Part shown: positions 8,834 to 40,210 of the stretch, in pieces
Position numbering within the stretch: position 1 is the first letter of the stretch
Layout of the letters: every line of letters starts with the position of its first letter
Assembly: GCA_003344405.1 (NCBI GenBank)
Contig: NOWV01000013.1
Coordinates: 124,001-188,000, forward strand
Reading direction: 5' to 3'
Length of the DNA: 64,000 nt
From: Trichoplax sp. H2
Lineage: Eukaryota
Notes under the pieces: model-generated
What the model was told of the DNA's origin: nothing
Seen by the model: only the letters and a program-made list of their open reading frames with translations
The model's database searches: none
Translations under genes and position numbers: made by a program

Positions 8834-10228
8834 CACTGTAGACTGTAGACTGTAGAGTGGAGGTAAATGAGAATACAGTACAGTAGAGTAAATGTGAAAG
8901 AAGAACAGCTTGTATGGGTCGTTGAACCGTTAAAAACGCATCTACCACATTCTTACTATACTGTACTGTACCTGTACCGTGCAGTACGGTACACTGAGTG
9001 TTGTCTACGGTGTACAGTGTACAGTATTTTACAGAACGTAGTGCAAGTGTACAGTACAGTACTGTTAAATGCGTTAGCGTTATCTGTAGCGCAACGCCAC
9101 GTCATACTGTACTGTAGATTGATCTGTACTGTTATTAGTGATATTATTGGTCTTCTTTTCTTGAAGGAATCATGCCCCAAGGACAGTACATTACTGTTCA
9201 GTGTATTTAAAATATACAGGAGCACAAAGCATACATCACAATGTATATACACTACTTAGAAAAGCAGGTAGTATCCACATACTTGTGTCTCAAGTCTGCA
9301 GTGTCAGCGTCAGGGCGAGGACGTACTGTACTGTAGACGTGGGCATCATCGCGCATATGATCACGCATTACTAGCTCACGAGGAGTCACGTCATGGAAAA
9401 ACTGTACTGTACTGTACAGTACAGTACAGTACAGTACGTCATCAGCTACAGTACTGTACAGTACTATACACTGTACACTGTAGAGTAGTACAGTACTGTA
9501 CAGTATAGTGGTCTGCTGTCGTACAGTACAGTACTGTACAAATCAGCGAGCGGTTCACCTCAACTCTCAACTGGACTGAACTAAACTGTATCGTGGAGAC
9601 AGCTGACTCGACGACGTCGAGTGTGTGTACTGTGAGCACGCGAAAATTCACTCAAGTGCAGCCAACTCTCCAGTATGGTGTCCAGTACCCAGTCCATACA
9701 GTACTGTACAGTACACTGTACTGTACAGTACGTCATCAGCTAGAGTACAGTACTATACACTGTACACTGTAGAGTAGTGCAGTGGTCTGCTGTCGTACAG
9801 TACTGTACTGTACAAGTGTACTAGTGTACAGTATAGTACAAATCAGCGAGCGGTTCACCTCAACTCTCAACTGGACTGAACTAAACCGTATCGTGCCCAG
9901 TCCATACAGTACTGGAACCGCATCAGCTTTCTTAGACAAAAACTGTACAGTACTGTACAGTGTACAGTACGTCATCAGCTACAGTACAGTACTGTACTAT
10001 ACACTGTACACTGTAGAGTAGTGCAGTGGTGAAGCACGCGAAAATGCACTCTAGTGCAGCCAACTCCAGTATGGTGTCCAGTACCCAGTCCATACAGTAT
10101 AATGGAAAAACTGTACAGTACTATACACTGTACACTGTAGAGTAGTGCAGTGGTGAAGCAAGCGAAAATGCACTCTAGTGCAACCAACTCCAGTATGGTG
10201 TCCAATACCCAGTCCATACAGTACTGGA
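8834..10228. repeat. Palindromic (TACAG/CTGTA)n array with duplicated cassettes in the acid phosphatase/TEAD divergent intergenic region
   Basis: Dense runs such as actgtactgtactgtacagtacagtacagtacagtac (9401-9437), interleaved with recurring 45-70 nt cassettes. Confidence 0.92.
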
Positions 10229-10548
10229 ACCGCAGCAGCTTTCTTGCTATAAAAAGCTTCTATCACGTTGTCGCGTCTGGGATTCACCAGGCGTTGTCTT
10301 GTGTGTAATATGCTTGGCCTACTGTAGTCCATTTGTAGTCAGTGGCTCACATTTTTGTCATTTTTTCTAAAAAATTCTGCTTCCGGCGGTCGTCAAAGGG
10401 TTTGCTTTAGCTGAGTTGTTGTGGCGTACAAGTTAGTCACGATTGGAAAAATTGATTATCCTATTGCAACAAGTTGACGATAGTATCGTTTTCAATCTTG
10501 ACGTCGTTCCATTGGTAGAACAGCTCGCGCTGTTTCTGTTCATTTAGC

Positions 10549-13500
10549 ATGAAGAACGAGGATGACAACTCCTCGTCACTTGATAGTTCAGACGAAGATG
10601 TTCCAAGAGGAGACGATGCTGAACGCGTTTGGTCTAGTGATATCGAGCAATCTTTTCAAGAAGCGCTAGCTATTTATCCACCGTGTGGCCGCCGCAAAAT
10701 TATCCTTTCTGACGAGGGTAAAATGTACGGTAAGTCTTGGAAGAAGTAGTCAAATAGGTGTAGGAGAGGATCATTCCTCTCACCTTAAGTCATCTTCAAA
10801 TTTGACAATGGCGGATAGACGATTGCCATACTAAAACCTTATTCAACATGATCTACAACCACTCATTGAAGTACAGTAGTAGTAACATACGTACGGAATA
10901 TACAATCAGTGGTGATGTTGTGATTTTGCTGTCTTCGCACGTATGGTGACAAGTGTAGTCTATTCCACTACTAATGGAGAGTTGTCCTATACAGTCCACT
11001 ACTGCCTTCATCTTCTCTCCCAAATCCATACGGCCATGCCTTGCCATGGCATTTCAACTAAAATTCAATTGAATTCTTCTTTTTCAACTCCAGGAGAACA
11101 CTTTGACTCATTACAAGTCTAACATTGACTTTATCTTCAAAGAATCCCTGTGCAAGTCTCATTCTTTCTTGCCGCAATAGATAAACTTGACAACAATTTC
11201 TTTCTTTTTACTTTTGCTGGAATGGGTTACAAACTGCGCTTGACTACCCCCATACTGTATCAATTCAATGCTATCCACTGGGGTTTTGCCTACTTCACAC
11301 CAGATACAAGATCGGATTAATTGCTAGTGGATTATTGTCATGACTCACTTGTAAACGCTCTCCTTACTCTAGCCTATTTAAAACCCCCCAAAACACATCG
11401 TCGATGCTAGGATGGCATGCACGGTTGCAATAAGTTTGTCGTCTCAAAGACTTCTTTTATAATTTCCGATCTTGCATGCAAATGATTGAAAGTGGCAGCA
11501 GCACATGACGCGTATAAACTACAATGCAATAGACTAGCGATGCTGTACTTCACAACATCAATTCGAGAACAAAATCCACATTAAAAGTAGTCTTGATGCT
11601 TTCATATTTTGCAGTTGGAAAGTAGCAGCAAAGGGAAGGTGTAAAATTTGCATTCTCAGTTTTCCCTGGCGCCATTGAAGTGTAAAAAAAAAAACTGCCA
11701 CATCGTCGTCTCCGATCCGCGTCAACCCGACCTTGTGTTGCATTTCGCCAGCATTGTCTCATTTTTTTCCAACCTCGAGACTGATCGATCAAATTAAAAT
11801 CAAAAATTAGACAGTAGCACTACTCATCTTGTTGGTTTAAAAAGTAAGAGCAAGTAATAGCGATCAATTGGCTAGGAGACGAATGAAAATAGCCATTTTA
11901 GTTCATTTGACGCTATTTCAACAAGCAACAACAGTATGAGTGACGATTTTATCACGAGTGCCCTGTTGGTGTTTATTCTTTACTTTGTAAATCACTGCCA
12001 TGAATTCGGGAGAGAGAAAGAATATTGACCAACCCCAAATTAAATACAAGGAAAATGGTAACGTGTTATTATTTAACGATAGCCATTAATTTCAAGACAG
12101 TTTTTTCAAAAACTGTCACCTTAGAACCCAATATAGTAACACCATAAAAGCATTTACCTGCAAACTATAGTATCCCGACTGACACATCGTTGCTTTCATT
12201 TATGAAAAGAGCCTCTATGTATCACAGGCTATCAATTGAAAAAGAGTTGTAAATAGTTTTATTATGGTAGGGGGTTATACCATGGTATAAGACAGTACAA
12301 GACTTATTCATAGTGTTATTCTATCTAATTGAATTTCAAATGCAGCTACGACTCCTTTTTTATACCCAGTACCAAAAAAAAACAACAAATTATTGAATCA
12401 AGCTATGATAAATAACTTGTGCAACGAGCGCTTCTCGACTATCCACGTTGACTTAGTAGACTTGAGTGATTCAATGAAAACCAAGCCGTATTGTTGTGTC
12501 TCCTGCCAACTTTTTAATTAGACATGGATACACTATCGAATAAAAAGGATATGGAAAAAGGCCTAAGATACATTCCAAAATGCACTACTTGTTTAACAGT
12601 ATTGCCGTTAATTAAGGCAATACATGTCGCTATTGCAATATGAAAAGCAAATCATTATAGTAAGCCAAACTTTTCAATGCATTTGTGGTTAATTAGAATT
12701 ATTCTAATTCACATATAACATCAAATTTATTAATCAAGGACTTTACATGATTATCCATTTAGTTGGTATTTGCAGCAGTATTAATTATTTATGATAACAT
12801 TGGCTGAAATTTGAAGAGTGCTATGTATTTTATAATTATTAATAAATGTACTGTACATTTGAAGGCATTGTAGATAATTAATTGAACGTATGTTTAGCTT
12901 GCAGCACAATTTTTCCAACATGTAATTCCCCAAATTTCTGTCTAATGTTTTGTTCACATACGCCCAATTGGTGGCATAGTGTATTTCCCTACATTTGACG
13001 TTGAAAATCCTTTCTAATATTACTTGAATTCCTACGGTGGATAGCCTAAGGATACTTCCTGCGTCATACTTTAAGCCGCAATATTGGTGATAAAATAATT
13101 TGGACTCTGTTGACGCTTCTCTACAGCCATACTGTAGATGAAAAGAAATATGGCAGTTATTAGTGTACGTCTAATGACTGCAAAATCACTTTTGCTATGC
13201 AATTTTCTGCTATTGTAATGCCTTATAGTTAACATCTCCAGGTTGATTTATTTAGGCGTTTGGTAACATTTTATGATTAATGAATAAGTTGTTGATGAGA
13301 CCTCATTTTTAGAGCCAGAATATTATAGAATGTGGGATAACTTCTTTACTATAGCGCCGTGGTAATAATTTTAACTGCCCTACTATTGCAGTACTGTATA
13401 TTGATAGAATACATCTAACTGTTTGTCTAATGTTATTAGTACAATATCATTTCAAGAGAAACTTCTGATTTTATTCACAATCCTAATATCCATTGCACAG

Positions 13501-16500
13501 TAGCATTGACCGTGAAATCTTATTACAGTATCTCGCGGTAACAAGCTGTCAATGATACAGCGAATCGAATACGGCCAAATACTGTAGTTGTTAAATGATT
13601 TGGCTGTCCTTTACGAAAAGATTCAATTTTGATCGTAGATTAATCTGGTATCTTCACAGTCAAATCTTTCGTTCATTCCGTAATAAAAAGCTGTGCCATT
13701 ATACTTAAAAATCGACAATCACCATACTGCAAGTTAGGCACAATTCCTTTCAAGACACCAACAAACCGTTATCACTGAAAAAAGTTAGTAATCTCCGAAA
13801 ATATGAATAGAATGTAGCATAAGTCAATTTTCCATTGGTAGCTGCAATGACTGCTTTAGCTTTAATACAGTACCTAATAACTTTACGGTATGATGCAGAA
13901 ACGTTCAAATGCGTTATCCACAATTGTACAACACCATTAATACTGTACCTAAATGGGAAATCTTTTCCTCTTTTAAAATATCTTGGCCTTTGCTCAATCT
14001 GCCAAAATATGCCGCCGGCAAACAATTCAAAATCATACCACATATTGTGTTGACTCATTGATTGACCACGGTGATCTGTATTCCATACATAAATCAGATC
14101 TACATACAGTACAGCCACAGACGATATGCCTAATATTATTATTATCGAAATATCCAAAATATTAGTTTTTAAGACAACCGGTTGTTAAATCGAGTTATAA
14201 TATGTATTTTACTGCTATACGCATATCTATATGTACATAATGCAGTAATAGGTAATTGCTCCTATAGATCTTCATAACTAGAGTAATAAGTCGATTGAAG
14301 AGTTTTTGCCTTCGGTTTCCTTTTAGACTACTATTCCATGAAATTACTATACTCTTTTCGAAATTGTCTTAACATTATGTGCAATATCTAAGCTAGCAGG
14401 TCGTCATATTTTATTTAATCTTTTATGAGGGTATATTGTAGTCATCTAAACTTTTCGGGAAAATCGAGATTTTACTGATTGGTCAGTACAGTACTGGATA
14501 TGATATCATCCGCTAATATTGGTCAGGCCGGGTGAGCAGGCGACAGTACAGTATATTACATACAATAAAATATTCGGAGAGCCTGGTTTCAATAGCAGTT
14601 TCGTTAAATTACCAGTATATGCCTAATGCTGTTATATTATCAGGCTATAACAGTAATGTAATAATTGTTACCGGCCAACGATAGACTTTAGCCTTTGTAA
14701 AGAATTAGTTTTTAATAATGTTGTAATACATGGATTACTAGAGTAGGAAAGATCCCTTCCAATAGTTCATCTCCTATCACATCAGAAGAGGACTTTCGCT
14801 GACGTAATAAAATTCCACAATCATCCTATAGTTTTAGTTAATATCAAGTAGAAAGAAAATTCTTTGCCGCTGGCTACTTTCCGGATGTTTTTTAAAATAT
14901 CAAAATATTATTATAATACGGTCGTGTAGATGAGATTGCGTCCTTTCAATTTACGTTTTCATGGTAAATACATTAGCTTCGTCTGTTCCTTCAATTCGTC
15001 ATCAATTCAATACGATAGTCTACGAATTAAAAACGTTGTCAAGCCGTAGATAACAAATAAAAGACACCGTTAACTATGCTTTATTGTCATTTTCGGGGTT
15101 GTTATCCATTAATCATTGATATCCAACTGTAGTCTCTTAATTAAATAGAAGAGAAAATTATCTGATGATAATAGAATATAACAGAAAGAAATAGGGAATA
15201 CTCATCATAGTTTAATTCTAGGTTCCAGTAAGCTTCGCTTGATTAAACCGAAGAGAGAGATTGTTTAATGATGACAATTAAAGGTTTCAAATATCATGAC
15301 TTGAGCTTAAGTCATAAAATTACTGTACTTAATTGCGAAGACTAGTCGATGATTATAGAATAGATGTTGTTAAAAAGCATCGAATATCATCATAGAAGGT
15401 CTTAATTGTTCATGACTACAGTTTAATTAAATTTAGAACAACTATTTGATGATCATCATACAGCTAAATCCTCCTAAAAACATCAAATGCTGCGAATTGA
15501 AATTAAAGAGAATAATCTCAAAAATGACGTCAAGCACCGTTGTTTAATCGTCTGTAGGTAGAATACTTACATTCATGTATGTATTCAGATAGAGCTTGCT
15601 AGATGTAACTAACTTATTAGCCAGGACTTGCTAAAAGAAGTTTATAGCCTTTACTATTGATTATGCGGCACAAACCAATGTCCTACTCTTTCAATACGCG
15701 TTCAATTAATTCTCAAAAAACGTACTAAGTGACGCACACTGACATCGCAGTCGTAACCATACGATAATTTACTTCTTATGTGTGCTTGGACGATAGCTAA
15801 ACAAGCTTTGATTTAACTTGAAATGTAGAATTAATGCTTATAAATATTTACGAGATTGGATAAGCTTAATATTTAGAATGAATATACTTTTAAATTTAAT
15901 ACTGCATTTGATTTATCGACTGTATGTATATCTTAAGTTGGTAATTATACCTGCGATTTGGTATTTAAGTATAGAATTACAGTGTTACATTCATTCAGTA
16001 ACTTAGGTGATATAAGGCAAAGTTAACTAGCCATCAGGCATGATTTGGCATTACAATCTTAAGCTTAGATAATTAATAGTTGATAACCTATGTTTTAGAT
16101 AATAATTTTCCAAAACTATCAATTCGTATATTGAAAATTAATTTAATTAAACTGTTACTTTATTCAATTACACTCTAGTTTAAAGTTAGAGTGTAACAAT
16201 TACCCATTCACATCAGGTGGGAGGGGGGTAAAAATTTTGCTATGAACTGCTACAGCACGGAAATTAACATTGCAATTTTAAGATTTGCGAATTATCACTT
16301 TGAAATTGTACGATTTACAAATATGAGTTGGTATAATTTGCGATCGATTTCTAGTTACGAACCATCATTTGACTGTAAAAATGTTGACAGTATTTGTATT
16401 TAAAAGATCATGCAAGATAGTTATAGATAAGGGGGGTTACTTATTTTACAAATTATGAAGTTAACTGGAAATGGTGTTGTATAACTTGCCATAGATAATT

Positions 16501-19500
16501 CTAGTTTTGTCCAATAATACAGTTACTGCACTACCATAGATATTGCATAGTAGAACTGATCTCTTTATAGTGCATGATGATAATTTTTATTTTATTCGTC
16601 CACCAATTTTAGTTATTATAATTACAAGATTAGTCATATCACTTTCCCAGTCGGTGCTGACAATGATTCTTTAGCGCATAGCTATATAAATAATCACTTA
16701 ATAATTATACTGTATAGTAGATGATTACCCTGCTGGTACTGTACTGTAGCAAGATATATTTTAAATTCTACGGTATAAGGGTTTTCATTGGGCTTTTCAA
16801 CGTACTCTATGATTCGTGCAAATTGTTTACTTAAACTCCTTTCAAGGGCTGCCATGGTACATAATGCGAACTATACCACTATAGACTATCGTACTGAATT
16901 GTTGTTTATTTTTGCCAATTGCATGTGGCTACACAATAGTATATGTTATTGGTCATGTAAACGCGTATAGAAGATAATGTTATCCCACTAGGAACTCTAT
17001 AGCAGACTGAATAATATAATCAACAATTACTCTCCAGTGCAGTATGTTATGTACGTAGCGTTGCATTTTTTCTAATACATGTTGCGACTTGTTTGCACAT
17101 GTTAAAACTCCAATTTACTGTGCATGCATATCTTTATGTTTTCATCATAACTTCGAGAATTAAAATTGACCTTGTTTACGATGTACTATATAGCGTACAC
17201 TTTAATTGTCCTCCGTTTTACGTGTTTTGTAATATACTAGATTTTACGAAGTATGAGACGCTATCGCGCGATATTGATAACTACTTACGATCCAAATAGC
17301 ATGATCGAAAACCTTTATATGATGAATTGCTTTTTCTAGGTCGGAATGAATTGATTGCTCGTTATATCAAGTTGAGAACAGGCAAACATAGGTCCAGAAA
17401 ACAGGTACTTTACAAACGATAGTCAAGAATTATAACTTTAATATTGTTATGTATCGTATGATTTGAATTTAGATCTACCTTGCATCAATGCTTTTAGTTT
17501 ACTCTGTAAAAATTAAATCTTATGTATATATACAAAAGGATTTAGTAAAGTTGCATTGTTTGTTGTGCGTTCAATTTAGTATTAAAATGTTAACATCTCA
17601 GTTTAAGTAATATATGGATCTGTATATAAATCAACCCTTATTAAAGCAACATTGGATACTATTGCACGATCATCGTCAGCATCGTGTACTATTTTTTATT
17701 GCCGTGAAAAATGAGTTGATGCACGTAGGCCTTAGTAAAATGATTTTAACGCTTGCGTTACTGTAATCATACTTATTCATACATTTTTTATACCCACAAA
17801 TATCTCCTACGATTAGAACTTCTTACTCTTTTAGACCGTAATTTATTTTACAGCTTAAATTACTCACTATTTCAAAGTCTTATACAGTACTGTATAGTAT
17901 TACCATACCTTTTGTAAATTATCGCTCTTAAGTCACTTTAAAAATTTCATACTTACGTTCTCACTATAACTAAAGATGCAGTGTTTACAGAGATGGACAA
18001 GATCTTACAGTGCTATTCCGAAAATATTGTAACTAAAAGTTTTTCTATCTATTTTAACAGGTGTCTAGTCACATACAGGTCTTAGCAAGAAAAAAGGCTA
18101 GAGAAATAAAAAATAATTTAAAAACGACGGATGTATGCACTAATAATAAACGAAATATTTTTTTTTCTAGACGTAGAGAGTTTTTAAATCTTTACTATTA
18201 CTAATTATAATTGATACTATCTAGAATCCATCAAATCGAGAAATTGCTTTGCAAGCTATTGCGACTATGTCGTCAGCACAGATTGTGTCGGCATCAGCTT
18301 TGTTTAGTAATTTAGTGTCAACTAAGCCAACGTTATCAACGTCAGGCGCAAAGGCTACAGCACAGCCAGTTAATGCATCTGGCCAACAGCCCATGGAAAT
18401 TGCTGCACCATCTTCTGAACTTTATCCTAATCAAGTTTCGATGCGTATCTTTTACTAGCTAAAACGAAATGTAGACATACGATTATGTATTATTGTAGTT
18501 AAACTAATAACAACGATATATTTATTACGAGATTACTACCTTTACAAAACGGTAGCTACTACATCAAGTACTGGATATGAATTGGGAAATAACGGCAACG
18601 CTAATAATCTAAAAGTAAGTCTAGGAATTGTAGACCATTATCATATATGGATATAAAAAGACATATATTACTTAATTAGATGTGGCCTTCTAGAAATTCA
18701 AATGACGCTACGAATTTGCGGTATGTATATAATATGTCCTGACTTATAAAGATATATTCATCAATGAGAGAAAAATAACTATCGGGACATAATTGCTGCC
18801 ATCATTGTTTAATCAAGTATTTCGTTTGTTTGTAATCTGGTAACAGAAATAACCAGAAATTAATGAATATGGAGCCAGTTTGTTCATCTTCGATCAACCG
18901 GAAAACCCTTCCAGATTCTAAGGTACTTTAGAAACTGACTTCGTTTACCATTTAATATTAAAAAATAATCCAGCTTTATCCATGTGCGGTTCAGGAAGCG
19001 GTCAGATCAGCCATTAACAACGGTGGAGAATCCAACAAGTCTGGAGCAATCACCGGCCATGTACGTAACAGTGTTAGCTATCGTCTTTACAGCTGTACTT
19101 TATAATGATACCATTTAATTAAATTGCTTACAACAGAATATAAAGCTGCAAGAATTTTCTGCCTTTCTTACATCGAAAATCGAATCGGAAGTTAGTTGGA
19201 TATCTCAATTACTACAAGTAATTTCTCTTAATATCAGGATTTACAGTACTCAAAGTAATTGCATTTGATTACAGCCTCGCAAACATCATTTTGTACGTAT
19301 TGGTCAATCAAACGACTTAAAAAATATAGAGGTAAGTCCCAGTATATCAATGTAGTAAGTAATGAGCCCCTTTACATATTATAGTTTTTGTTATTAATTT
19401 ATATTATTTTATATACGCACCCTAAGATTTTCTTTAACATACTAGTCAATAGACATCCAACAAATTCTCGATAAATTTCCTGATGGTCAAAACGGATTAA

Positions 19501-20219
19501 AAGATCTATATTCTAAAGGACCTCCAGATGCGTTCTACCTGGTTAAATTTTGGGTACATTCATTCTCAGTTATCGTGAATCAATTTTGCAAACTTTAAAA
19601 TAGTTTAAGCCAATATAAAATCAATTATTTGATTAGGGCGATATGAATATAACGATTCCAGAAGAAGGGGCATTTTATGGTGTTTCCTCTTGTTATGAAA
19701 GTGAAAAGCAGATGAAGATTCTAATATCATCGAAAGTTTGCTCATTTGGTAAACAAGTAGTTGAAAAAGTTGAGGTATAGCAAACGTAATTAGTGAATTT
19801 TTTCACAATTTTCTTAAAATTGTCTTCTTTATTTTAAGATTTTCTGATACGGATATTCAATTTATGTAATTGTATTCTTAGGGTGAACATGGATCATATG
19901 AAAATGGAAAATATGTATATCAGGCTACAGATTCCCCTTGGTGCGATTATTTGATAACGTTCATAGGAAAATTACGTAGCCTTCCTGAAAAGTATATGAT
20001 GAATAGTGTCCTTGAAAATTTTACTGTATTACAGGTAAAATTTCTGCAACACAGATATTTTCTTGTGCAATTTCTCTGTATAATGTTAAAAATCATTTAT
20101 TCTAGGTTGTAATTAACCAAGAAACGAAAGAGACTTTATTATGCATCGCGTACATTTTTGAAGTATCAAGCGGTGATCATGGTACTCAACATCGTGTTTA
20201 CCGGCTTGTCATGGGATAA
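10549..20219 (+). CDS. TEAD: TEAD/TEF-1/scalloped transcription factor (TEA DNA-binding domain plus YAP-binding domain)
   Basis: Exon 10549-10729 encodes [39 protein letters not shown], exon 17340-17404 [21 protein letters not shown], and exon 18061-18132 [13 protein letters not shown]-terminal exons encode [37 protein letters not shown]...[20 protein letters not shown] and [13 protein letters not shown]...HRVYRLVMG*. Exons in the middle linker are less certain. Confidence 0.97.
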
Positions 20220-28625: not shown

Positions 28626-28824
28626 ATTTCTTCATTTTAATCGCCTCTCCTGTTTACTCCCCAACAATTGGACAAGAACGAAGGTTGCGCTCGCCTACAA
28701 AGCGCTGCCTTCCAACCATCCATCCGTCCCACGCGCCTGCCTACTACGGTAGTGCCTGGTCTCCACTCCTGGTCAGTGTATCGTGGAGCAGATTGAGCCC
28801 GGTGTAATCCACTGCATCATCGAA

Positions 28825-30552
28825 TGTACCGTCATGGCATACTGTACGACTTGGACAAGTCCACCGTACGGTACAGTACCGTACAGTACAATAGTCATCG
28901 TACTACTGTACTATGTACTGTAGTAAGAGACTGTAGACTGGAAAAACAAGCCACACTATACAGTACAGTTCTTCTATTGAAAGTAGTGTTCTATTGGGAC
29001 CATAAGGTGAAGCTGCGGAACTGGATGATTTGCTTCCTTTTGTGACGGCAGTGGGGCAGTACAGTACTTTTACTCTCTGGCTACAGTATTCGTACTGTAA
29101 CTTGTGTATTGTAGTACTGTAATAATCTACAGTACTGTACAGTCAGGTACAGTACTTTTACTCCCTGACTACAGTATTCGTACTGTAACTCTTGCAACTC
29201 TTGTACTGTAACTCTTGTAACTCTTCTTACTCCCTGACTACAGTACAGTATTCGTACTATAATTCGTGTATTGTAGTACTGTGATCGACAGTCCAGTACA
29301 GTACAGTATGTACTGTACTTTTACTGCCTGACTACAGTATTTAAACTGTAATTCCTGTATTGTAGTACTGTACACTGTACCGTACAGTACTGTACTGTAC
29401 TGTAATCTGCTGTCCGGTACAGTACTTTTACTCCCTGACTACAGTATTCGTACTGTAATTCACTGTCAGATCACGATCAGGGACTACTGTACAGTACAGT
29501 ACTCGACTCATGAGTGGATTGACTCACTTCTCAAGTCACACTACAACTGTCCGTCACAGAGAAATGACTGAGGAACTACGGTACAGTACAGTATAAACTG
29601 ACAGTGAAAGGTCTAGACAGTGTACTGTACTGTACTGTACAGTACAAAGAAAATGCGCCATCCTACAGTACAGTATATGACTTTTGCGGACTGAGGCTGC
29701 AAGTTACTGTTCGTCCGTCCAGGCGTAGCGATCCATCTGTCGACACAACAGTCTACAGCACAGTACTGTACTGTATAGAAATTGGCCATTGACAGAGACA
29801 TGACACCGTTCAGTACACTGCAGTACAGTACTGTATGTTGCATTAGTACAGTATGTACAATACCACGGACTACTGTACAGTGTACAGTACTGTACTGTAC
29901 GTGCAATGTAAAGAGACTGTACAGTGTACTGTACTGTACTGTACATTGTCGACTGTACGCACTACGCAGTATCATACTGTATCATACTGTACTGTACAGT
30001 ATGATATGATAGAGCATGGTTTGAATCGAACCTTTCTCAGGTCTATCAGTATCCATGAGAGATTGAGTGAACTGATATACTGTACAGTACATTGTACAGT
30101 AGACTGTACTCTACAGTGTGCAGTACTGTACTATTTCCAAGGGAACATCGCAACAGACCTGCAGTGGATAATACTCACTCTACTCACACTAGGCCTTGTT
30201 AACGCAGTCCAATCGTGTACAGTGTACAGTACAGTATACAGTACAGTACTGTACAGTTGGACAGTAAACCGAACATACTGTACAGTACTGTCGATAGACT
30301 GACCAACTCATTGAGTGAACTGATGTACAGTACATTGTACAGTAGACTGTACTCTACAGTGTGCAGTACTGTACTATTTCCAAGGGAACAACGCAACAGA
30401 CCTGCAGTGGATAAAACTCACTCTACTCACCCTAGGCCTTGTTAACGCAGTCCAATCGTGTACAGTGTACAGTACAGTACAGTATACAGTACAGTACTGT
30501 ACAGTTGGACAGTAAACCGAACATACTGTACTGTCGATAGACTGACCAACTC
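28825..30552. repeat. Palindromic (TACAG/CTGTA)n array in the WDR48/NDUFB2 divergent intergenic region
   Basis: Dense tacagtactgtactgtac runs, a ~40 nt cassette repeated about 5 times, and a ~248 nt tandem duplication. Confidence 0.92.
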
Positions 30553-31188
30553 TGGAAAAGGACGGACTGCTTCAACGGTGTGCTGTCGACGCCGTTTCTC
30601 CTCCAACTTCTCCGCAGCTGGCTAGTCCTGTTGCTCATCTCTTTTTCTACCTTCAAAACATTACTGGTAGGTTATTCAACTTGTTGTCTTTTTAATAAAT
30701 AAAACCACGTAGCGCTGTCCAATAAACTACTGACTGTAATGACGTATGGTATGGAATCAGCAACCCTCATGTGTACAACATAGCCAAGTCAATGTAGCGC
30801 GCACCACGCCATGTTTACCCTGTTGATGACTGTTCATCATGAACGTCTGCAGCAGTCTTCCAATAGTTTGCTCAGCAAACGCATTCCAATTCGATCCTTC
30901 TAAGGCGATAGTGGTTCATGACGTTATCCCTTATAAGTAGCTTGTATCATACGTATCTATCCAATGAATCGATTCATGTTCATTGCGATCGTTATTTTAC
31001 ACTCACTAGCGTTAACTTCGATCATTTTCAACTAAACAAACGACGATAATAGCGTATCAATTAAAAACAGTCCATGCTAATCAACTGTAGACAAGCTATC
31101 GTAATGTACAGCTACAAAAGCCATCCATAACATTTTGCTATAAATTAATGCCAATATCATCAATTCTTTCAATTTTAGATCCAATACA

Positions 31189-31604
31189 ATGAGGCGGGCT
31201 GTCGTATTACCTCCGCCTCAATTTAGGCAGGTATTTTTATCCAAATTTTTTGGTGGCATGATGTGGTTTTGGATGATGTGGCGATGTAAACATGATTGGA
31301 GAGATACTTTGGTGAGTTGATCCTTACTAATGTATATACATAAGTTAATATCGACTGATATATGGAAATGGATTATTGTACTACATCACTGTATCGAGCG
31401 TAATCCTGAATTTCAGAAATTGGACAGAGTCATTCACTTGCTAACCTTATCGTTCAATTTGTACAATTTACTACCATCAACCTATTTACTTTGCTATACT
31501 ATGAATATGACTCGATCCTAAAAGTTCAAATAATTCTATTATAGGGATTGGAACATCATTGGTCACTTGAAGTATATGAAAAGAGGCACAAACATAGTGA
31601 ATAA
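31189..31604 (+). CDS. NDUFB2: NADH dehydrogenase (ubiquinone) 1 beta subcomplex subunit 2 (AGGG)-like
   Basis: Not in the ORF track. Exon 31189-31311 (MRRAVVLPPPQFRQVFLSKFFGGMMWFWMMWRCKHDWRDTL) splices to 31545-31604 (GLEHHW...*). FFGGMMWFWMMWR.KHD...LG matches the NDUFB2 signature FFSGLMWFWILWRFWHD...LGH. An upstream, possibly non-coding, exon probably ends near 30666. Confidence 0.8.
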
Positions 31605-32039: not shown

Positions 32040-32340
32040 GCGATAAGATGAAAACATTGGATATCCAGTAATTGGTTCGTACTTTTTCAGAATAGCTCGG
32101 TACCCTGGTCATAAATGTAACTATGAAAGCCATGATAGCTCATCTGATACTTTATTTATCATTACTCATGATCTCTAAAAAATTTTAACCAAACCCTTTG
32201 CGATAAGATGAAAACATACGATATCAAGTAATTGTTCATACTGTTCACAATAACTAGGTACCGCGGTCATTGACGTAAATATGAAAGCTATGATAGCAGA
32301 TCTTATACTTTATTTATCATTATTCATGCTTTCTAAAATT
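32040..32340. repeat. Two-copy tandem duplication, 160 nt period
   Basis: gcgataagatgaaaacat...actttatttatcatta occurs at 32040 and 32200, with scattered substitutions. Confidence 0.85.
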
Positions 32341-32806: not shown

Positions 32807-35589
32807 TTACTTATCAGTTTTCGTTACTATATCGGAATAATCCTTCAGCGTATCCTTATCAAGATGAGTATTAGTAAACTTGAATTGGCGAGACCTTTTC
32901 GATTGCCTAGGATTTTTGCGCGGTGGTGCCTTTACATAACAAAAAAGAAGATATAGCTTTACACTAGACTATATTGAGTTAAAATGCGTAGCAATTATCG
33001 TACATTTAAAATTAAAAATCATACATTAAACTGTCACCAATTACCAGACTAGTATTTAAATACAAAATTGACAGTATACACATTGGTCAAGTGTTTTCAT
33101 AGAAAAGATAACTTCAGTACAAGGTAAGATGCTACGACAAAAGTTGACACCCTCAGCACAAAACTAACATCGGCAGTTGAAAATTATCCCATCGATCACT
33201 TACTTTTCTTTTGGTGCGACCTGAATCTTCCATGACAGTTATTCCAGCTAAATAAATTCGATAAATTAGAGGATACTCGCAATTACTCTCAACACTGTAA
33301 GAATGTCATGCTAATCAAGAGTAATCTGCTATCGCGATTACGCATTGCTACATTACCCTTTTTGAGGTACACTTCGATATCGATTTCAGATACATCTACA
33401 CTAACGCTATACCACAATTGTTTAAATTCTACAGAAAGTAGAAATGTAAACCATTTCGCGTTACTTAACAGCAAATCTGATTTTTATCAATGCAAACTCT
33501 GACTACCTTCGGATACGTCAAACTTATTCTTGATATCATTGAAGTATATGACTTGTTTTTTATCATTCGGTCTGGTAAGGATAGTAACCGAGTCATCTAG
33601 ATTCTTTATGGTACAAATATCAATTGGTATTTCTATGAGAAGTAGCTTCGTAATACCCGTTATAAAATGGGCACAGTCGAATCTATATACGTATTTATTA
33701 TTAAGCACCTTCTACGCATACTTATGAAAGATCAAAAGTTATAATTCTGTACTATCGAACTTTAGAATTGAATAAAAAGAGTAACCTTTATTATGTTTTC
33801 AGAGTTGGGCAAACTTTCCTTCACATCATCAATATAAACGCCACCTAAGCCATTCTCATAACGTTTCTTTAAAAATCGATAGAGCTGTTTCTTACTCTTG
33901 ATATCGAATTTTGGCTAAAAGTATAACAAAGATAAAACTGATGTATTACGTTTGATTTCAATTAACATTATCTAATATGCAACTTGAAATACTGTAGTAA
34001 CTATCCGATCGTTAATGCAGTACCAATACCATGTCACACAATTTAAAGCTACTAACTATTCTTAACTAACTAGCAACAAGACAATGATAGCCAATAAAGA
34101 TTTCATGCTTTGTAATACCTTGAATTTGAATTTACCATCTTGAATACTTATCTTCTCATTATTTACTAAAGCCTAAATAGATGGTAGGTATTTGTCATGT
34201 CAGGCATAAGCAGTCTAGTAATATTACAAATATTACTCAGACAATTACAAAGCAGCATCAATGCTTACAAATTGATCTGCTACTGAAATATTTCACCATC
34301 AATATCAAAATTATGTAGCATATGATGCTACAATAATACCAACAGTTATAGCATAACATTTGTAATATTTGTAGTTGTGTGGTAAGCTTACATGCTTTGC
34401 GAGCCAATCTTTGTCGGTAGATTCAATATCGGTAGTCTGAGTTCGATCAAGTAATTCATCAAGAGACAGTGGAGAATTTTCACCATATTGGTAGCGTTCC
34501 TATAGAGGCAACGCAAAAAAGTAAGCGTATTAGCGAAAAGAAGCCCACTACTAACATTCCTCTCGGTATACATCATAAACTCTACTTACTTTCATGTAAT
34601 TAACAATCTTATTTAATACCCCAAATCTACTCCGCGATCGTCCAGTAGTTAGCTTATAATTATATGATTTACTTCCTAGAAAGTAACAAGTCAGGTAAAG
34701 ATTTTACAAAGTATTCACTTAATACTTGAAGTATGAATAGTAAATATCCAGTGTAATAACATGCATTGTAATTAATGACTCTCTGTCGGAGTGTCGGTGA
34801 AGCAGTAAATCGTTTACAGTCTATGACTAGCTTCCACGACAGAAAACGAAAAGCAATCTACAGTCTTGGACAGGATAATTGTCACTCACTGCTTCAATTT
34901 ACTGTATCAATGATTAACAATTCATCCATTTATTATACTTTTGTAGGTTAAGCTACGGAAAAATCTTGTTTATTTGTTAGTGATTATGTTAAACAGGATG
35001 AAGGATTGATATATCTATAAATTTGAAAGTGCCTTAAGTTCAGTAGGAGACTATAACTGTAAGACTCTTTTTTTAAAGTCATCCTGCTAAGCTCCTATAC
35101 CACTAGTGCGAGTGTTCTCCTATCTATTAGAGTAGTTACTGTAGCAAATTAATGCATATTTTGATTACGATGGCGCAGTGACCTTCAAAGTAGTCATCTT
35201 TCTGCCAATCACATATATACTGTACGAGTATCTATCATGCTCAATTCTTTAGCAGATTACAGCGTTAGGACTAGGAGATCGATTCATAGAAATAGCATGC
35301 CCTCTAATCTAATCCATGCTAGCACATCCCTGTAGTAGTTACAATTACAATAAATCCATACTAATTTAGCCATAGCATCCATTGACAGCCTTTCGTCGAT
35401 AATTTAATACATTACTGTATGGTCGTGAGCAATATTGGTACCTGATGTTGCAGGAGTTGAAGTAAATGTTTTAACTGATTTCTCGGGCTTGAATTTAGTA
35501 ACCGGTTGAGATTTCCTTTTCTCCACACTTGGCTGAGCCAATTGGCGGTTAATAAATTTTTGACGTTCTTTAGCTAATGCCGGATCCAT
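32807..35589 (-). CDS. GTF2E2: General transcription factor IIE subunit beta, multi-exon
   Basis: Starts MDPALAKERQKF...PSVEKRK. Internal exons encode PLSLDELLDRTQ...DWL, ALVNNEKI, RPNDKKQVIYFND and EFKQLWYSVSVD...IEVYLKK; the end is RQFKFTNTHL...LKDYSDI. All resemble TFIIE-beta. Confidence 0.92.
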
Positions 35590-35985: not shown

Positions 35986-36095
35986 TCATACAGTATACAG
36001 TACTGTGTCAGACAGTATTTAAAACTATCGTCTAGCCCAGCTGGCAAAGCCTTTTACTGTACAGTATGTGATAGAAAGACCGACATGATACAGTA
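35986..36095. repeat. Small TACAG/CTGTA cluster upstream of GTF2E2
   Basis: atacagtatacagtactgt and tactgtacagta, about 400-500 nt before the GTF2E2 ATG. Confidence 0.6.
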
Positions 36096-36184
36096 AAGTT
36101 GAATACATTAACACGAGCAATAGGGTTCCAGGTTGAAAGTGCAAATCCAAATTTTCCAAATTGATCATTGTAGCAATAATACAT

Positions 36185-36455
36185 ACTACAACTTCAACTC
36201 ATTTATGGAATTAAGTAGAGAGAAATGATGCTACTGTAAGGTATCATGCAGTGTACAAAGGCGTTTCTTTTCAAGTGAATCTAGTTTTAGCGTAGCTGAA
36301 CTCTGTAAACAGTCCATTTGACTACAACTTGAACTCGTTTATGGAATCAAGTAGAGAGAGACGATGATACTAGAAGGTATCATGCAGTGTACAAAAGCGT
36401 TTCTTTTTAAGGGAATCTAGTTTTAGCGTAGCTGAACACTGTAAATAGTCCATTT
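36185..36455. repeat. Two-copy tandem duplication, ~136 nt period
   Basis: actacaactt.aactc.tttatggaat...aaggtatcatgcagtgtacaaa...aatctagttttagcgtagctgaac...agtccattt occurs at 36185 and 36321. Confidence 0.88.
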
Positions 36456-38569
36456 TATACAATATAATATCATTAATGGTCGTCAATATTGCACTGACTT
36501 ATCATAAAGTCGAAATTCTTCTACAATCATAGGCTTGTATATATATACCACTATTAAGAACACTAATGTATTACCGTGTATTCGAAGAATGGACTAAGAA
36601 ATAAAAATCGTCAAAATATCGATTTGTAGAATATATAGAGTATTAACGATAAGCACAAGTGATCGAATATTACGGCATTAATTATTATAATTATACACGC
36701 ATTGTATACGCGTATAGTATATCGAGAATTATACAGCAGTTATTTATTATACAGTATAATGTACGTATATTGTATAAATTAACGTCCGCATATATACTGA
36801 ATAATGGCTTATTTCCATCGGTGTGTTACATTTTAAATCTATAAATATATAAAATCCAATCTTACTGCAGTAGAACCTGAATTTGTCATGAATATCGTGT
36901 AGATTTGTAATAAATTGTAAATTTCTCTACGATGGCAGTGTTACAAATAACCAACTGGGCACAGTACAGCATATTAGAAAGATAAGGAATAAATCATCAA
37001 AATATTGACGGGAATATCCAGGGGTTAACATACATGTGTGGCTAAATTGTTAAAACTATTTATAGCTCTTCAACTATAATTTTCAATAGCTCCTTATTTA
37101 AATCTTCACTGCATAACCTATTACTTTCTGTATTTATTTTTTATAAATACAGAATTGATGTACAGTATGCGTATGTTACGTTATGATATACGAGCACATA
37201 ACAACTATACGTATTGCACACTATGCACAGATGTGTAGTGTAGGGGCTAGGAAAAATAGCCGCATAAGTACATTTAAATATGCATATAGCCTGCTTATAG
37301 CAAAGTATACCAGTATGTGTCCGCATGCTTATTTCACATCGAGCTATTTTGCACATATGATTGCGGTGTCTATAGTACATTGGCAACATTAAAAATATAG
37401 ATATTAACAATTTATTTGAAAAAGGCCTTTATTACCGCCTATGATCATCGAGAGAAATCATAACCCCACTTAATTATATATTTAACAATTATTTATCTCA
37501 ACCGCATGTTACGTTTTACACATATAAAAATAAGTATATTGACCAATTTACAATAGGTGCTATAAAAGGTGGATGAGTGAGCATTATGAATGCATGTGGG
37601 ACTAACGCTCATGGCACATTGTATTAGGAAAGTATTACATTATGCCATACCAAACGATAATTACAGCACAGTAATATCTTGTCTACGTATATACGTATAT
37701 ACGTATACAAAATATATTTATTGTGCAGCATATCATAATATTGGTGTAATGGGATGCTGATAATATAATCATAAGTAATATATCAAATATCTAGATGTTT
37801 ATAATGATGATGTGTAAGGTATAAAATAGAATATTATATTATGAAAAACATAGCAAGAAAATAAAAAGTTAGTATCGTAGAAACGTGAGAATGCACATAT
37901 AAAATAGTAGCAGTGTACATTAGCATATCTACCAATGCTATTAGCAATGTACATCTTAGTATAATTAATAGCAAAAGAATATCCCTCAAGGCCTTTAATA
38001 TACAGTAAAATACCTTAGATACGTACGTATTCAAGCTGACACAGCATAATCGATCATAATGTTGTATCAAATGTATCAGAATAACTTTTATACCAGCTAT
38101 GCATATGCAAAGGAACAACGAATAACCAACGATTTATCGGGATAAGCTCAATAACCAATTTGATAAAGCCACCCATTGTAGCATAATAGTCATTTAAGAG
38201 CAATACATAACATCATGCAGCGATAAAATGGCGAAAGTCGATTATTGGAAATCGTAATTAATTCAGCAATATTTGTATGACATATTTTCTTATACTATTG
38301 AAGGAACATGTTTTAATTACACTTTTAGTACTACGGTATACAGTATAGTAAAACCTTTTATATCGTTGCGATAGTAATTTTTAATAATAAAGCAAAAATC
38401 ATTATCTACAAGTTGAATAGATGGAATGTATAACTGTAGGAAAGACGAGTACATGATATTATTGACATTCTATGGAATAAATCCCGTATCCAGCTTACTT
38501 CGCTATCTTTAATATAGCTAAGAGATGAGCATTTGGGGAGATAGAAAGAACGTATAATCGAGAGTGTTA

Positions 38570-39424
38570 TTACGAAAGACCAGACAACCTTCTCTGATTC
38601 TTGTTACGATTCACAAAAGGAGAATTTTGGCTATCCTTTAAGGGTGATCTTGGAATATCAGTACCATTGGCAAGTTTAGGATAGAGAATTTTTCCTTTCA
38701 TCATTTTATCAACACCAATATTTTCATTCTGAATTTGCTTCTTTCTTGGCTTTTTCTTTTTCTTTCCTTCAGTATTTTCACCTGCTTGCTGATTGCTTGC
38801 AGGACATGAATTATTACTGTCTCGGGATGCTATAACCTCCTGTTTATCTTTTGACTGCTTATTATCATCCATTTTACTCGTATCAAGGTGTAACGTTGCC
38901 AGTTTGGGTAGTACATCTTCACCTAATGATAAAGCGCCATCATCCACTTTTTCTTGGCCACTTACTGACTCTGTTAACTCTGCACGTTGAGCAAGGTTAT
39001 CATCTTGTGTATCATTACCTGACGTTAGAGATGTATCAGTTGCTTTTTGCTGCATAACATTATCCTCGATAGGCTTATGATACGACTCCTCCTGTTGGCA
39101 CTGTTCGATCTCACTGTCGGAGATGGTAAATTTGATTGCTTGACACTCGTTAACCAATTGACTAATCCGCTGACTAGCAACATAAACTGGAGTTCTAGCG
39201 AAGCGCATCGTCGGCGATCGTGGATCATCGAAGGATTCTAACTTATGAACAGGAGTCCGAGTAACGTTGATCGAAGGTGATCGTGGATCATCTATGCATG
39301 CCACCTTTTGAACTGGTGTTCGAGTAAAATTGGAAGAAGGCGATCGAGGATCATCGCCAAGCTGACTACTGACATTAGAAGGTGACGATGGCACTGAAGT
39401 CTCTTTACCCACTTGCGATCCCAT
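38570..39424 (-). CDS. CDCA3: CDCA3/Tome-1-like cell-cycle protein, single exon, 284 aa
   Basis: Intact ORF starting MGS, with three DPRSPxxxxxRTP repeats and a C-terminal RSPL...NSP motif. This is the motif layout of vertebrate CDCA3. The rest is low-complexity, so orthology rests on short motifs only. Confidence 0.72.
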   Translation of the reverse strand: MGSQVGKETSVPSSPSNVSSQLGDDPRSPSSNFTRTPVQKVACIDDPRSPSINVTRTPVHKLESFDDPRSPTMRFARTPVYVASQRISQLVNECQAIKFTISDSEIEQCQQEESYHKPIEDNVMQQKATDTSLTSGNDTQDDNLAQRAELTESVSGQEKVDDGALSLGEDVLPKLATLHLDTSKMDDNKQSKDKQEVIASRDSNNSCPASNQQAGENTEGKKKKKPRKKQIQNENIGVDKMMKGKILYPKLANGTDIPRSPLKDSQNSPFVNRNKNQRRLSGLS

Positions 39425-39676
39425 GGTACGCGTCTATGACGATTAAACGAATAAAAGAAAATAAGAATTGGCTAATTTTATTTTAACACAAGAGAAGAGG
39501 GATTCCTTGACTTAATCTAACTTGTTTTACTGGCTAAATTGCTGAATGAAACTGCTATCTGACAAGGAAGTTTGGAATTAATATCTGCTCATGTTGTCAT
39601 TTGTAAACAGTTTAAAATTGAATGTTACCCGTATGAGTGAAAGTTAAAAAGTGACGCTAGCAGTCTCGAATCTGTG

Positions 39677-39681
39677 ATTGG
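39677..39681 (-). promoter_or_regulatory. CCAAT box (AGCCAATCA context) upstream of the CDCA3-like gene
   Basis: tgattggct on + reads AGCCAATCA on -, a full match to the extended NF-Y consensus, about 255 nt upstream of the ATG. Confidence 0.45.
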
Positions 39682-39720
39682 CTGAAATTGTATTTTAAAT
39701 AACTGTCATAGAGAACTGCC

Positions 39721-40210
39721 GTACTGTACAGTACAATCATTACAATACGTACTGTACTGTTACAGTACTGTACACTGTAATGTACTGTTTTGTACAGTGC
39801 ACAGTCGGTTCTGGTGCTACAATGTATTGTACTGTAGAAAAAACTTCTGATTGTACAGTACAGTACAGTACTGTCCTATTCTGTACTGTATTGTACTGTA
39901 CTGTACTGTACTGTACAGTACATCATCCAGGACCGTGTGGACAGGATAAGGCCAAAGATTCCGTGACAGCTGTAGTGTACTGTACAGTACTGTACTGTAC
40001 AGTGCACTTCTACAGTACGGTGTACTCTACTGTACAGTACTGTACACTGTACACTGTAAGCCAAAGATTCCGCAACTGCTGTCCTGTACAGTGCACTTCC
40101 ACAATACAATGTATTGTAGAAGTACTGTACAGTGTACAGTACACTGTACTGTAGTCAAGGGTCATCGTCTTACAGTATGAAGACTGTAGTGTACAGTACT
40201 GTGTACTGTA
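39721..40210. repeat. Palindromic (TACAG/CTGTA)n array in the CDCA3/URB1 divergent intergenic region
   Basis: For example tgtacagtacagtacagtactgt and ctgtactgtattgtactgtactgtactgtactgtacagta. The cassette gccaaagattccg occurs twice (~39951 and ~40060). Confidence 0.92.

Follow-up and report, generated by a model that had tools for sequence, protein, structure and literature searches.

Three islands of a short repeated word stand out in the 64,000-nucleotide stretch of Trichoplax DNA analyzed here (the window), and each lies between two genes transcribed away from each other. The arrays within them are (GTACW)n, the spacer W being A or T in random order, and the effective site is the degenerate palindrome GTACWGTAC rather than a stranded pentamer. 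On balance we favor reading such promoter-proximal (ACAGT)n clusters as a multimerized, orientation-free site for a postulated factor at shared, mostly housekeeping promoters. The repeat itself is not new: (ACAGT)n islands are a real, genome-wide feature of Trichoplax that has been in print since Wang et al. (2010), contrary to the novelty implied by the first-pass annotation of this DNA. What we add is the (GTACW)n reading, the A/T spacer, the 5-bp steps by which arrays change, the lack of transposon hallmarks and the depletion of CpG.

The word TACTGTACAGTA had 16 matches in the 64-kb window in comparison with 0.01 expected, a number reached by none of 100 shuffles, and TACAGTAC, counted on both strands, occurred 144 times in comparison with 2.67 expected and a shuffle maximum of 8. 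For the counts, the islands were bounded at 8800–10300, 28800–30600 and 39650–40260, covering 3,913 of the 64,000 bases (6% of the window). These bounds enclose 121 of the 144 copies of TACAGTAC, leaving 23 outside; GTACAGT/ACTGTAC is 74-fold enriched (146 inside versus 30 outside), and GTAC reaches a density of 52.4 per kb inside versus 3.6 elsewhere. Defining an array as a chain of GTAC at 5 or 7 bp spacing, we found 29 chains with three or more GTAC, 28 of them in the three islands and one at 557–575; among chains with at least two, 7 of 58 fall outside the islands. The islands measure 0.5–1.7 kb and about one-third of their sequence consists of short arrays of two to seven units, including ACAGT repeats that run without mismatch for more than 12 bp (e.g., at 9404–9437, 29622–29645 and 39893–39921). 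Some 500-bp bins away from gene starts (17501–18000, 21001–21500 and 35001–35500) also hold six to seven pentamers each.

Gene identities come from Pfam matches on open reading frames (ORFs), and "5′ of a gene" means 5′ of its first recognizable coding exon. Island 1 (8835–10228) is a strandless collection of (GTACW)n arrays and locally duplicated modules, with 32 GTACNGTAC sites from 8963 to 10121. On its left, a histidine acid phosphatase gene on the minus strand (4226–7950; "ACP" in the first-pass annotation) turns its 5′ end toward the island; it has His_Phos_2 matches on exons 4878–5015, 6876–7025 and 7274–7372 and an RHGDRSP motif near 7660–7690, and its start is not fixed, a possible one lying near 7950. 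On its right is TEAD (10549–20109, plus strand), confirmed by Pfam matches to both the TEA domain, in an exon from 10519 with the ATG at about 10549, and the YAP-binding domain, in the exon 19882–20109. Island 2 (28825–30552), likewise strandless and with 43 GTACNGTAC sites, separates WDR48 (22181–28625, minus strand, ATG 28625; WD40 exons and a C-terminal DUF3337) from NDUFB2 (coding exons 31190–31518, plus strand, ATG 31190; NADH_B2 match). Reading of the sequence suggests a putative noncoding first exon of NDUFB2 at 30570–30667 (plus strand), as a GT donor at about 30667 could be joined to the AG acceptor directly before the ATG at 31190; transcription would then begin at the right-hand margin of island 2. 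Island 3 (39721–40210), with 21 GTACNGTAC sites and no strand of its own, sits in the middle of a 1.15-kb gap between a single-exon CDCA3-like gene (38573–39424, minus strand, ATG 39424), which is 100% identical to T. adhaerens TRIADDRAFT_54748, and URB1/Npa1 (40579–51618, plus strand), for which Npa1 and NopRA1 were matched and the ATG at 40579 was read from the sequence.

The first-pass annotation had reported five clusters and placed the long ones in these three head-to-head gaps, and the Pfam and ORF evidence bears out the gene placement. All five clusters exist at the stated coordinates, the two minor ones included. The strandless array GTACTGTACTGTACAGTAC at 557–575 is just 19 bp long and the only chain of three or more GTAC outside the islands; it lies about 155 bp upstream of a plus-strand ATG at 729, after which a GT donor occurs near 831. 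The other, at 35988–36098 and also without strand, is weak and degenerate, with one TACTGTACAGTA and a few TACAGTA, and precedes the ATG of a small ORF on the minus strand (35590) by 400–500 bp. The arrays are indeed absent from tail-to-tail gaps: an island occupies three of three divergent gaps and none of three convergent ones, a contrast that within this window alone (three versus three gaps) gives P = 0.10 (Fisher test), and the convergent gaps contain no chain of three or more GTAC and one or two isolated octamers each. The final 12 kb, described as holding only isolated copies, has a single TACAGTAC. Array ends are 240–680 bp from the flanking ATGs, and the arrays overall 240–1,900 bp from them; measured to ATGs, they are within the 1–5 kb upstream of the nearest gene considered by Wang et al. 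(2010). The claim that every gene start is marked was overstated, as the supplement of Wang et al. (2010) counts 5,548 loci with the motif in a genome of 11,520 genes, and looped promoters concern about one-third of genes in the account of Kim et al. (2025).

Neighboring GTAC words are spaced by 5 bp in 96 cases and by 7 bp in 16. The 96 single-letter spacers comprise 48 A, 44 T, 2 G and 2 C, and with a background G+C of 0.32 four or fewer G/C among them would be drawn with a probability of 1.5e-11; GTAC is intact throughout, and a spacer repeats the letter of its neighbor in 22 cases and departs from it in 24, as random order predicts. The A/T spacer thus looks constrained, although its composition could in principle stem from mutational bias instead of selection. 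The orientation flips noted earlier are real, both orientations being present in 19 of 25 chains. Since the unit ACWGT is a degenerate palindrome, identical to its own reverse complement, the flips and the 12-mer palindrome reduce to single A/T differences between spacers, and no inversion is needed to produce them; the point that strand symmetry suits bidirectional transcription is sound but has this simpler basis. For comparison, we used at least 114 metagenome loci with the same pentamer. Among the loci listed there, only 38 of 442 chains are of mixed orientation (Fisher P = 2e-14 against the chains of the window), and in the listed matches neighboring spacers are the same 1,298 times and different 163 times. 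The far greater share of mixed chains sets the Trichoplax arrays apart from ordinary one-strand microsatellites, a class that we rejected for them also on the basis of chain length, no chain exceeding seven units, and of the even split of neighboring spacers.

The islands change by two routes. In island 2, a tandem duplication at 30062–30552 (plus strand) repeats a block of 243–248 bp made of array, unique sequence and array; its copies are set apart by three indels, each of exactly 5 bp and each within an array, and by three substitutions, none of which falls in an array. In island 1, the region 9405–10223 (plus strand) is a mosaic of locally repeated modules at 82–96% identity: 9405–9595 resembles 9697–9895 (82%), 9411–9494 resembles 9942–10027 (93%) and 9986–10099 resembles 10110–10223 (96%). 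Array turnover is thus of the slippage type, with whole 5-bp units gained or lost, and whole blocks are also copied locally. As slippage is active, some of the array pattern could be mutational. In sum, the arrays behave as in situ, slippage-driven elements and not as transposon ends.

For the preference for upstream positions across the genome and for the connection with insulation, we rely on published papers. According to Wang, Zhang, Meyer and Bao (2010, Biol Direct 5:18), the microsatellite that dominates in Trichoplax is (ACAGT)n. They counted 5,624 ACAGT microsatellites in the genome versus 14 in ESTs, found 54% to be no more than 1 kb and 85% no more than 5 kb upstream of a gene, and suggested that the repeat serves as a site for a transcription factor. 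Their repeat is identical in sequence to ours, comes from the same genome and lies mostly upstream of genes. Additional file 5 of that paper lists six arrays of island 2, 770–1861 bp upstream of WDR48 (gene 22317), and one array of island 1 upstream of the TEAD4-like gene 22423; island 3 was not found among its rows under six number prefixes. Unlike here, perfect repeats longer than 12 bp were counted on one strand, and the main text describes no mixed orientation, GTACW reading, kilobase islands or divergent pairs, the strings "palindrom" and "promoter" never occurring in it. More recently, the Chimaera network, which learned from Micro-C data of T. adhaerens, returned repeated ACAGT, a cyclic permutation of the TACAG of the first-pass annotation, as an insulation-associated motif in that species, and the motif's impact on predicted contact maps was checked by in silico mutagenesis (NAR 2026, PMC12817080). 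In the text of that paper the motif is a one-sentence computational result, given without anatomy, factor or link to the 2010 study. The upstream bias and the insulation motif agree with the core of the earlier proposal of a lineage-specific promoter-proximal mark; its extension to every gene start, its CpG analogy at the level of sequence and its implied novelty are not supported.

Kim et al. (2025, Nature 642:1097, PMC12221973) reported that about one-third of placozoan genes form promoter hubs, that the hub promoters are mostly those of housekeeping genes and positive for ATAC and H3K4me3, and that the loop anchors carry an enriched motif, also present at orthologous promoters in other placozoans. 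NDUFB2, URB1 and WDR48 are genes of the same kind. The anchor motif and the ACAGT repeat may be identical; on the other hand, PMC12817080 equates the motif of Kim et al. with repeated ACGG and not with ACAGT, and ACGGACGG-like words are not enriched in our window (8 versus 7.3 expected). Kim et al. moreover tie the anchor motif to Mutator terminal repeats, a connection to which the window lends no support.

The analogy with CpG islands that the first-pass annotation had drawn does not hold at the level of sequence. Observed/expected CpG is 0.66, 0.63 and 0.46 in islands 1, 2 and 3 versus 0.93 elsewhere, a depletion instead of an enrichment, and their G+C (0.40–0.46), although above that of the surroundings, is only about 0.42, for which reasons we rejected membership in this class. 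Like vertebrate CpG islands, the Trichoplax islands are strandless, kilobase-scale stretches of compositionally distinct DNA at housekeeping or bidirectional promoters; unlike in those, the signal is a specific word and not a dinucleotide. A second parallel is found in Drosophila, where promoter words or repeats such as DRE/BEAF-32, Motif 1/M1BP and the GAGA-factor (GA)n recruit dedicated factors that open chromatin and form boundaries. These, too, are promoter signals made of a short word or a simple repeat, but the words differ, the Trichoplax arrays are much more densely packed, with about 50 GTAC per kb, and we know of no homologous factor connecting the two systems. The M1BP motif does score in T. 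adhaerens, because it has four letters in common with the local motif (PMC12817080).

In the explanation that we prefer, the (GTACW)n arrays would form a multimerized binding platform without orientation for a sequence-specific factor, which would probably bind GTACWGTAC-type sites as a dimer. Shared promoters, mainly those of housekeeping genes, would be held open both ways by such a factor, which would also turn them into chromatin boundaries and contact points. Alternatively, DNA structure might do this with no protein involved: GTAC at every half helical turn, a flexible TA step per 5 bp and self-complementarity could by themselves keep promoters open, the islands being poor nucleosome substrates or prone to form cruciforms under transcription-driven negative supercoiling. 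We consider this unlikely, although the arrays have a strong hairpin potential that is equally compatible with it. Folded as single strands, all eight array segments were more stable than shuffles that preserve their dinucleotides (z of −2.2 to −6.1; 0–5 of 200 shuffles as good), with perfect stems of up to 16–19 bp and 3-nt loops, and two flanking control segments were not (z = 0.17 and −0.61). The three islands contain 69 inverted-repeat pairs of at least 24 nt, and 10 of 13 two-spacer chains are palindromic, a nonsignificant excess (P = 0.09). A self-complementary unit is bound to give hairpin potential, however, which therefore does not discriminate between the readings, and many arms are imperfect owing to the random A/T order. 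The scarcity of G/C spacers (4 of 96) is not needed for hairpins, as G and C would pair equally well, and better matches base-specific recognition. It also weighs against a neutral by-product, in which a slippage-prone microsatellite seeds and expands, or merely survives, in open, G+C-richer promoter DNA without any promoter function. The 5-bp indels between the 243-bp copies, the local duplication of modules and the occurrence of the same pentamer as an ordinary microsatellite in the DNA of other organisms all agree with such an origin. Nevertheless we find it improbable: the arrays here stop at seven units, whereas the listed metagenome chains reach 42 and are 89% same-orientation; neutral decay of an initially pure array would bring G/C transitions and erode GTAC, whereas GTAC is kept and the spacer is randomized between A and T only; and the published in silico mutagenesis points to an effect on predicted contact maps (PMC12817080).

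We give still less credence to a transposon origin, in which DNA transposons of the Mutator type, favoring active promoters for insertion, left the arrays as remnants or as their terminal inverted repeats. Mutator elements target gene 5′ ends in plants, and the islands are rich in inverted repeats, but the array motif itself makes up all 69 inverted pairs. A Mutator-type origin is one reading put forward by Kim et al. (2025), whose looped promoters often have Mutator insertions with the anchor motif in the terminal inverted repeat. In the window, none of 278 ORFs matched a transposase family (150 of at least 55 aa outside the islands and 128 of 28–54 aa in 600–8850; ORFs inside islands were left out because they are array translations). 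Between the islands of the window, blastn aligned only arrays (45–171 bp at 68–84% identity), and their unique modules are not shared but duplicated only locally. Flanking duplications of 8–11 bp gave 218 matches from 270 block pairs in a test confounded by tandem duplications, and are confined to islands 1 and 2, where all are embedded in longer, local direct repeats; island 3 has none. Across the whole genome, Wang et al. (2010) detected by homology 6 fragments of MuDR and a single MITE family with about 20 members, versus 5,624 ACAGT arrays. The published link may have another source. EDTA calls TIR elements from structure, so that inverted arrays could be labeled as Mutator. This is the tool used for the repeat annotation of Kim et al. 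(2025). It is conceivable, and we suggest it tentatively, that the "Mutator terminal repeat" of the loop anchors is a mislabeled (GTACW)n array not derived from a transposon. The arrays would then be a promoter code without orientation that renews itself through slippage, and a postulated dimeric reader would use it to arrange bidirectional housekeeping promoters into boundaries and hubs.

In placozoans, gene regulation relies chiefly on proximal promoters and transposons are almost lacking, which would make one word at thousands of promoters a key to transcription in the simplest animals. The recent work on the 3D genome renews the topicality of a pattern published in 2010, and the palindromic GTACWGTAC site, its apparently constrained A/T spacer and slippage in situ sharpen the search for the protein that reads it. 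If in situ, slippage-driven behavior holds genome-wide, the published connection to Mutator would be read differently; and if the loop-anchor repeat is indeed a mislabeled array, the islands would be a placozoan functional counterpart of CpG islands, based on a word instead of a dinucleotide.

The pentamer clusters of the window are arrays of GTAC tetramers with a one-base spacer, (GTACW)n, of which ACAGT and TACAG are readings in shifted frames. Both long words of the repeat are vastly overrepresented in the window, the 12-mer palindrome TACTGTACAGTA occurring 16 times (0.01 expected) and the octamer TACAGTAC 144 times (2.67 expected). The copies are concentrated in three islands at 8800–10300, 28800–30600 and 39650–40260 (islands 1, 2 and 3), which represent 3,913 of the 64,000 bases and contain 121 of the 144 octamers. 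Similarly, 146 of the 176 GTACAGT/ACTGTAC heptamers are inside the islands, a 74-fold enrichment, and the density of GTAC is 52.4 per kb in them vs. 3.6 per kb outside. We defined arrays as chains of GTAC at 5 or 7 bp spacing; 29 chains had three or more GTAC, 28 of them within the islands and the remaining one at 557–575. The octamer and palindrome counts and their concentration confirm the clusters described in the first-pass annotation. Its claim that arrays are missing from the tail-to-tail gaps and the final 12 kb also holds, as we found no chains of three or more GTAC in the three convergent gaps of the window and a lone octamer in the last 12 kb. An array-like block at 56690–56709 was considered a match by chance. 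The region 52000–64000 has a G+C of 0.28–0.30, with no Pfam match in 15 scanned ORFs and no arrays, and could be a gene-poor stretch or a small-exon gene of a class without open-promoter marks.

To place the islands relative to genes, we used Pfam scans of stop-to-stop ORFs and located the start codons by reading of the sequence. Island 1 is flanked by a histidine acid phosphatase on the reverse strand (exons 4878–5015, 6876–7025 and 7274–7372), labeled ACP in the first-pass annotation, and TEAD on the forward strand (TEA exon 10519–10746, YAP-binding exon 19882–20109, ATG at ∼10549). Island 2 is flanked by WDR48 on the reverse strand (DUF3337 22181–22880, WD40 exons up to 28631, ATG 28625) and NDUFB2 on the forward strand (31144–31317, ATG 31190). 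Island 3 is flanked by a CDCA3-like gene on the reverse strand (38573–39424, ATG 39424), a 284-residue ORF with 100% identity to T. adhaerens TRIADDRAFT_54748, and URB1/Npa1 on the forward strand (40986–49188, ATG 40579). Given these strands and start codons, the three large clusters occupy three head-to-head gaps, as initially proposed. The wider claim that the repeat marks every gene start is an overstatement. The array at 557–575 is a minor cluster of 19 bp, ∼155 bp 5′ of an ATG that precedes a GT donor; the cluster at 36 kb is likewise minor and degenerate, 400–500 bp 5′ of ATG 35590 on the reverse strand; and a few 500-bp bins remote from gene starts contain six to seven pentamers vs. a median of two.

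Other features were recorded in the same region. A CDKN3 match at 941–1057 (21 bits) was taken as spurious, and Rfam gave no matches at the gathering score across the window. Tandem repeats unrelated to the pentamer are found within the WDR48 gene span (26264–27050, 333 bp × 2.4), 3′ of NDUFB2 (32040–32338, 158 bp × 1.9) and adjoining the weak 36 kb cluster (36185–36462, 136 bp × 2.1), while a 63-bp repeat at 39213–39356 (2.3 copies, 76% matches) within the CDCA3-like coding sequence codes for the recurring peptide DDPRSPS..TRTPV. Isolated GTACWGTAC sites or pairs at 12848, 14486, 16736–16748 and 17883–17894, located after the TEA exon of TEAD and before its YAP-binding exon, are probably intronic. 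The available text of Kim et al. (2025, Nature; PMC12221973) reports that part of the promoter contacts involve intronic elements.

Within the islands, GTAC recurs at 5 bp in 96 cases and at 7 bp in 16. The one-base spacer is A in 48 cases, T in 44, and G and C in two each, and G/C spacers are too rare to be background at a G+C of 0.32 (P(≤4 in 96) = 1.5e-11). The pentamer reads “forward” where the spacer is A and “reverse” where it is T, and the 12-mer palindrome arises where T at one spacer precedes A at the next. Since neighboring spacers are the same in 22 cases and different in 24 (P = 0.88), the spacer order is random, and switches from T to A (9) and from A to T (11) are both seen. Inversion events are unnecessary to explain the orientation flips; the unit ACWGT reads the same on both strands, and GTACWGTAC forms a 9-bp palindrome. 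For contrast, we scanned metagenome contigs with a pattern of five GTAC units with A/T spacers and found at least 114 loci. Among the matches listed, these are mostly one-orientation microsatellites from eukaryotes, with no placozoan relative, and their chains reach at least 42 units. Mixed orientation was found in 19 of 25 chains of the window vs. 38 of 442 metagenome chains among the matches listed (P = 2e-14, Fisher test), adjacent spacers of the latter being the same in 1,298 and different in 163 cases. Short, dense and without a fixed orientation, the Trichoplax arrays thus differ from ordinary microsatellites of the same pentamer. A few metagenome contigs, L084 (280–520), L032 (1–520) and L080 (1230–1680), carry GTAC-per-5-bp arrays with mixed A/T spacers, and that of L084 shows a higher-order repeat of ∼50 bp.

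The 40 array blocks take up 1,199 of the 3,913 bases in the islands, and the remainder is unique sequence with a G+C of 0.43–0.46 vs. 0.32 in the rest of the window. Despite the higher G+C, the observed/expected ratio of CpG is 0.46–0.66 in the islands vs. 0.93 elsewhere, and the suggested analogy with CpG islands goes too far. When the islands were aligned with each other using blastn, the arrays alone aligned, in stretches of 45–171 bp with 68–84% identity; copies of the unique modules are local only and none is common to different islands. Local duplicates are found in island 1 (9405–9595 and 9697–9895, 82% identity; 9986–10099 and 10110–10223, 96%) and in island 2 (30062–30309 and 30310–30552, 93%). 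The island 2 copies differ by three indels, each of exactly 5 bp and all within arrays, and by three substitutions, all beyond arrays, while the copies in island 1 show A/T spacer changes besides. The 5-bp indels and the spacer changes between copies indicate that the arrays change through slippage of units and through transversions at spacers, in blocks duplicating in situ. CAGTCC/GGACTG was enriched outside the arrays but was discounted, as the copies stem from local duplications. The module TACGTCATCAGCTA, with the CRE-like half-site ACGTCA/TGACGT, has three copies between the arrays of island 1 (9435–9448, 9729–9742 and 9968–9981), and ACGTCA is also present at 9090–9100 and 9385–9395. The islands, 6% of bases, hold 5 of the 29 ACGTCA copies in the window, and these are not independent because local duplication made them. 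At 10248–10255, ∼20 bp past the final array in island 1 and ∼300 bp 5′ of the ATG of TEAD, the word TATAAAAA may represent the core promoter of this gene.

The islands belong to the known ACAGT repeat class of Trichoplax. The available parts of Wang et al. (2010, Biol Direct 5:18) report 11,697 microsatellites, 61.8% of them pentanucleotide, with ACAGT making up 78% of the pentanucleotides; ACAGT was found 5,624 times in the genome vs. 14 in ESTs, was located upstream of genes (54% within 1 kb and 85% within 5 kb), was linked to genes enriched in translation and protein modification, and was suggested as a transcription-factor site. The identity is settled, and their table contains two of the three islands: in Additional file 5, island 2 corresponds to six arrays placed 770–1861 bp upstream of WDR48 and island 1 to a single array ahead of a TEAD4-like gene; island 3 was not found within the gene-number prefixes searched. 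Neither “palindrom” nor “promoter” appears in their main text, as far as it was available. Among the matches listed in literature searches, Trichoplax combined with bidirectional or head-to-head promoters gave no Trichoplax paper, ACAGT combined with placozoa gave only Wang et al. and the Chimaera paper (NAR 2026; PMC12817080) as treating the repeat, and the raw repeat words matched primers and microRNAs only. In the accessible text of the Chimaera paper, with Micro-C data of T. adhaerens as training input, a network finds the repeating motifs ACGG and ACAGT, assigning ACGG to a transposon and to Kim et al. and leaving ACAGT without explanation.

We favor the reading that the arrays are a multimerized palindromic candidate factor site at shared housekeeping promoters, because GTAC and an A or T at the spacer persist through changes in orientation and unit number, and because the network of Chimaera, in the text available, ties ACAGT to insulation. 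Neutral microsatellite growth in open chromatin is a possible alternative: unit slippage is seen here too, set against the kept spacer class and the mixed orientation. A protein-independent structural role is also possible and ranks above neutral growth. In single-stranded DNA folding, all eight array segments beat their shuffles (z from −2.2 to −6.1), with stems of up to 16–19 bp, vs. z of 0.17 and −0.61 for two flanks used as controls; this excess arises because the unit is self-complementary, and the folding scores make cruciforms possible without implying their formation. The third possibility, a transposon origin, agrees poorly with islands that align by arrays alone and with Pfam, where transposase families matched 0 of 150 and 0 of 128 ORFs outside the islands. 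The 69 inverted pairs of at least 24 nt in the islands (18, 44 and 7) are all built of the array motif. The 218 matches to flanking duplications of 8–11 bp, from 270 block pairs, all fall inside longer direct repeats local to islands 1 and 2, which confounds the test, with none in island 3. No clear transposon hallmark was seen at these loci.

A related question is raised by Kim et al. (PMC12221973), who, in the text available, describe about one-third of placozoan genes as housekeeping, ATAC- and H3K4me3-positive and forming promoter hubs, with an enriched loop-anchor motif, reported inside Mutator terminal inverted repeats and shared with orthologous promoters of other placozoans. This motif, whose letters are given in a figure, may be the ACAGT array. 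A de novo motif search at such promoters would encounter a word enriched 70-fold. EDTA is a structure-based repeat annotator, and with such a tool inverted arrays could pass for terminal repeats. EDTA v2.1.0 is the annotation tool named by Kim et al., and Mutator by homology is almost missing from this genome, the available text of Wang et al. giving transposons as 0.13% of the genome, with six MuDR fragments and one MITE family of ∼20 copies. On the other hand, Chimaera equates the motif of Kim et al. with ACGG in the text available, and ACGG is not enriched in the window: ACGGACGG, the repeated ACGG, occurs 8 times with at most one mismatch vs. 7.3 expected, the islands hold 23 of the 155 ACGG copies, in line with their G+C content, and GTACSGTAC has four sites only. 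The chance-level count and the G+C-matched share rule out repeated ACGG as an island feature.

Overall, the initial interpretation was broadly right, although overstated in two respects as described, and it had already been published (Wang et al. 2010). What is added here is modest, namely the reading of the repeat as GTACW with a random A/T spacer, its turnover in 5-bp units, the CpG depletion of the islands and the absence of clear transposon hallmarks from these loci.
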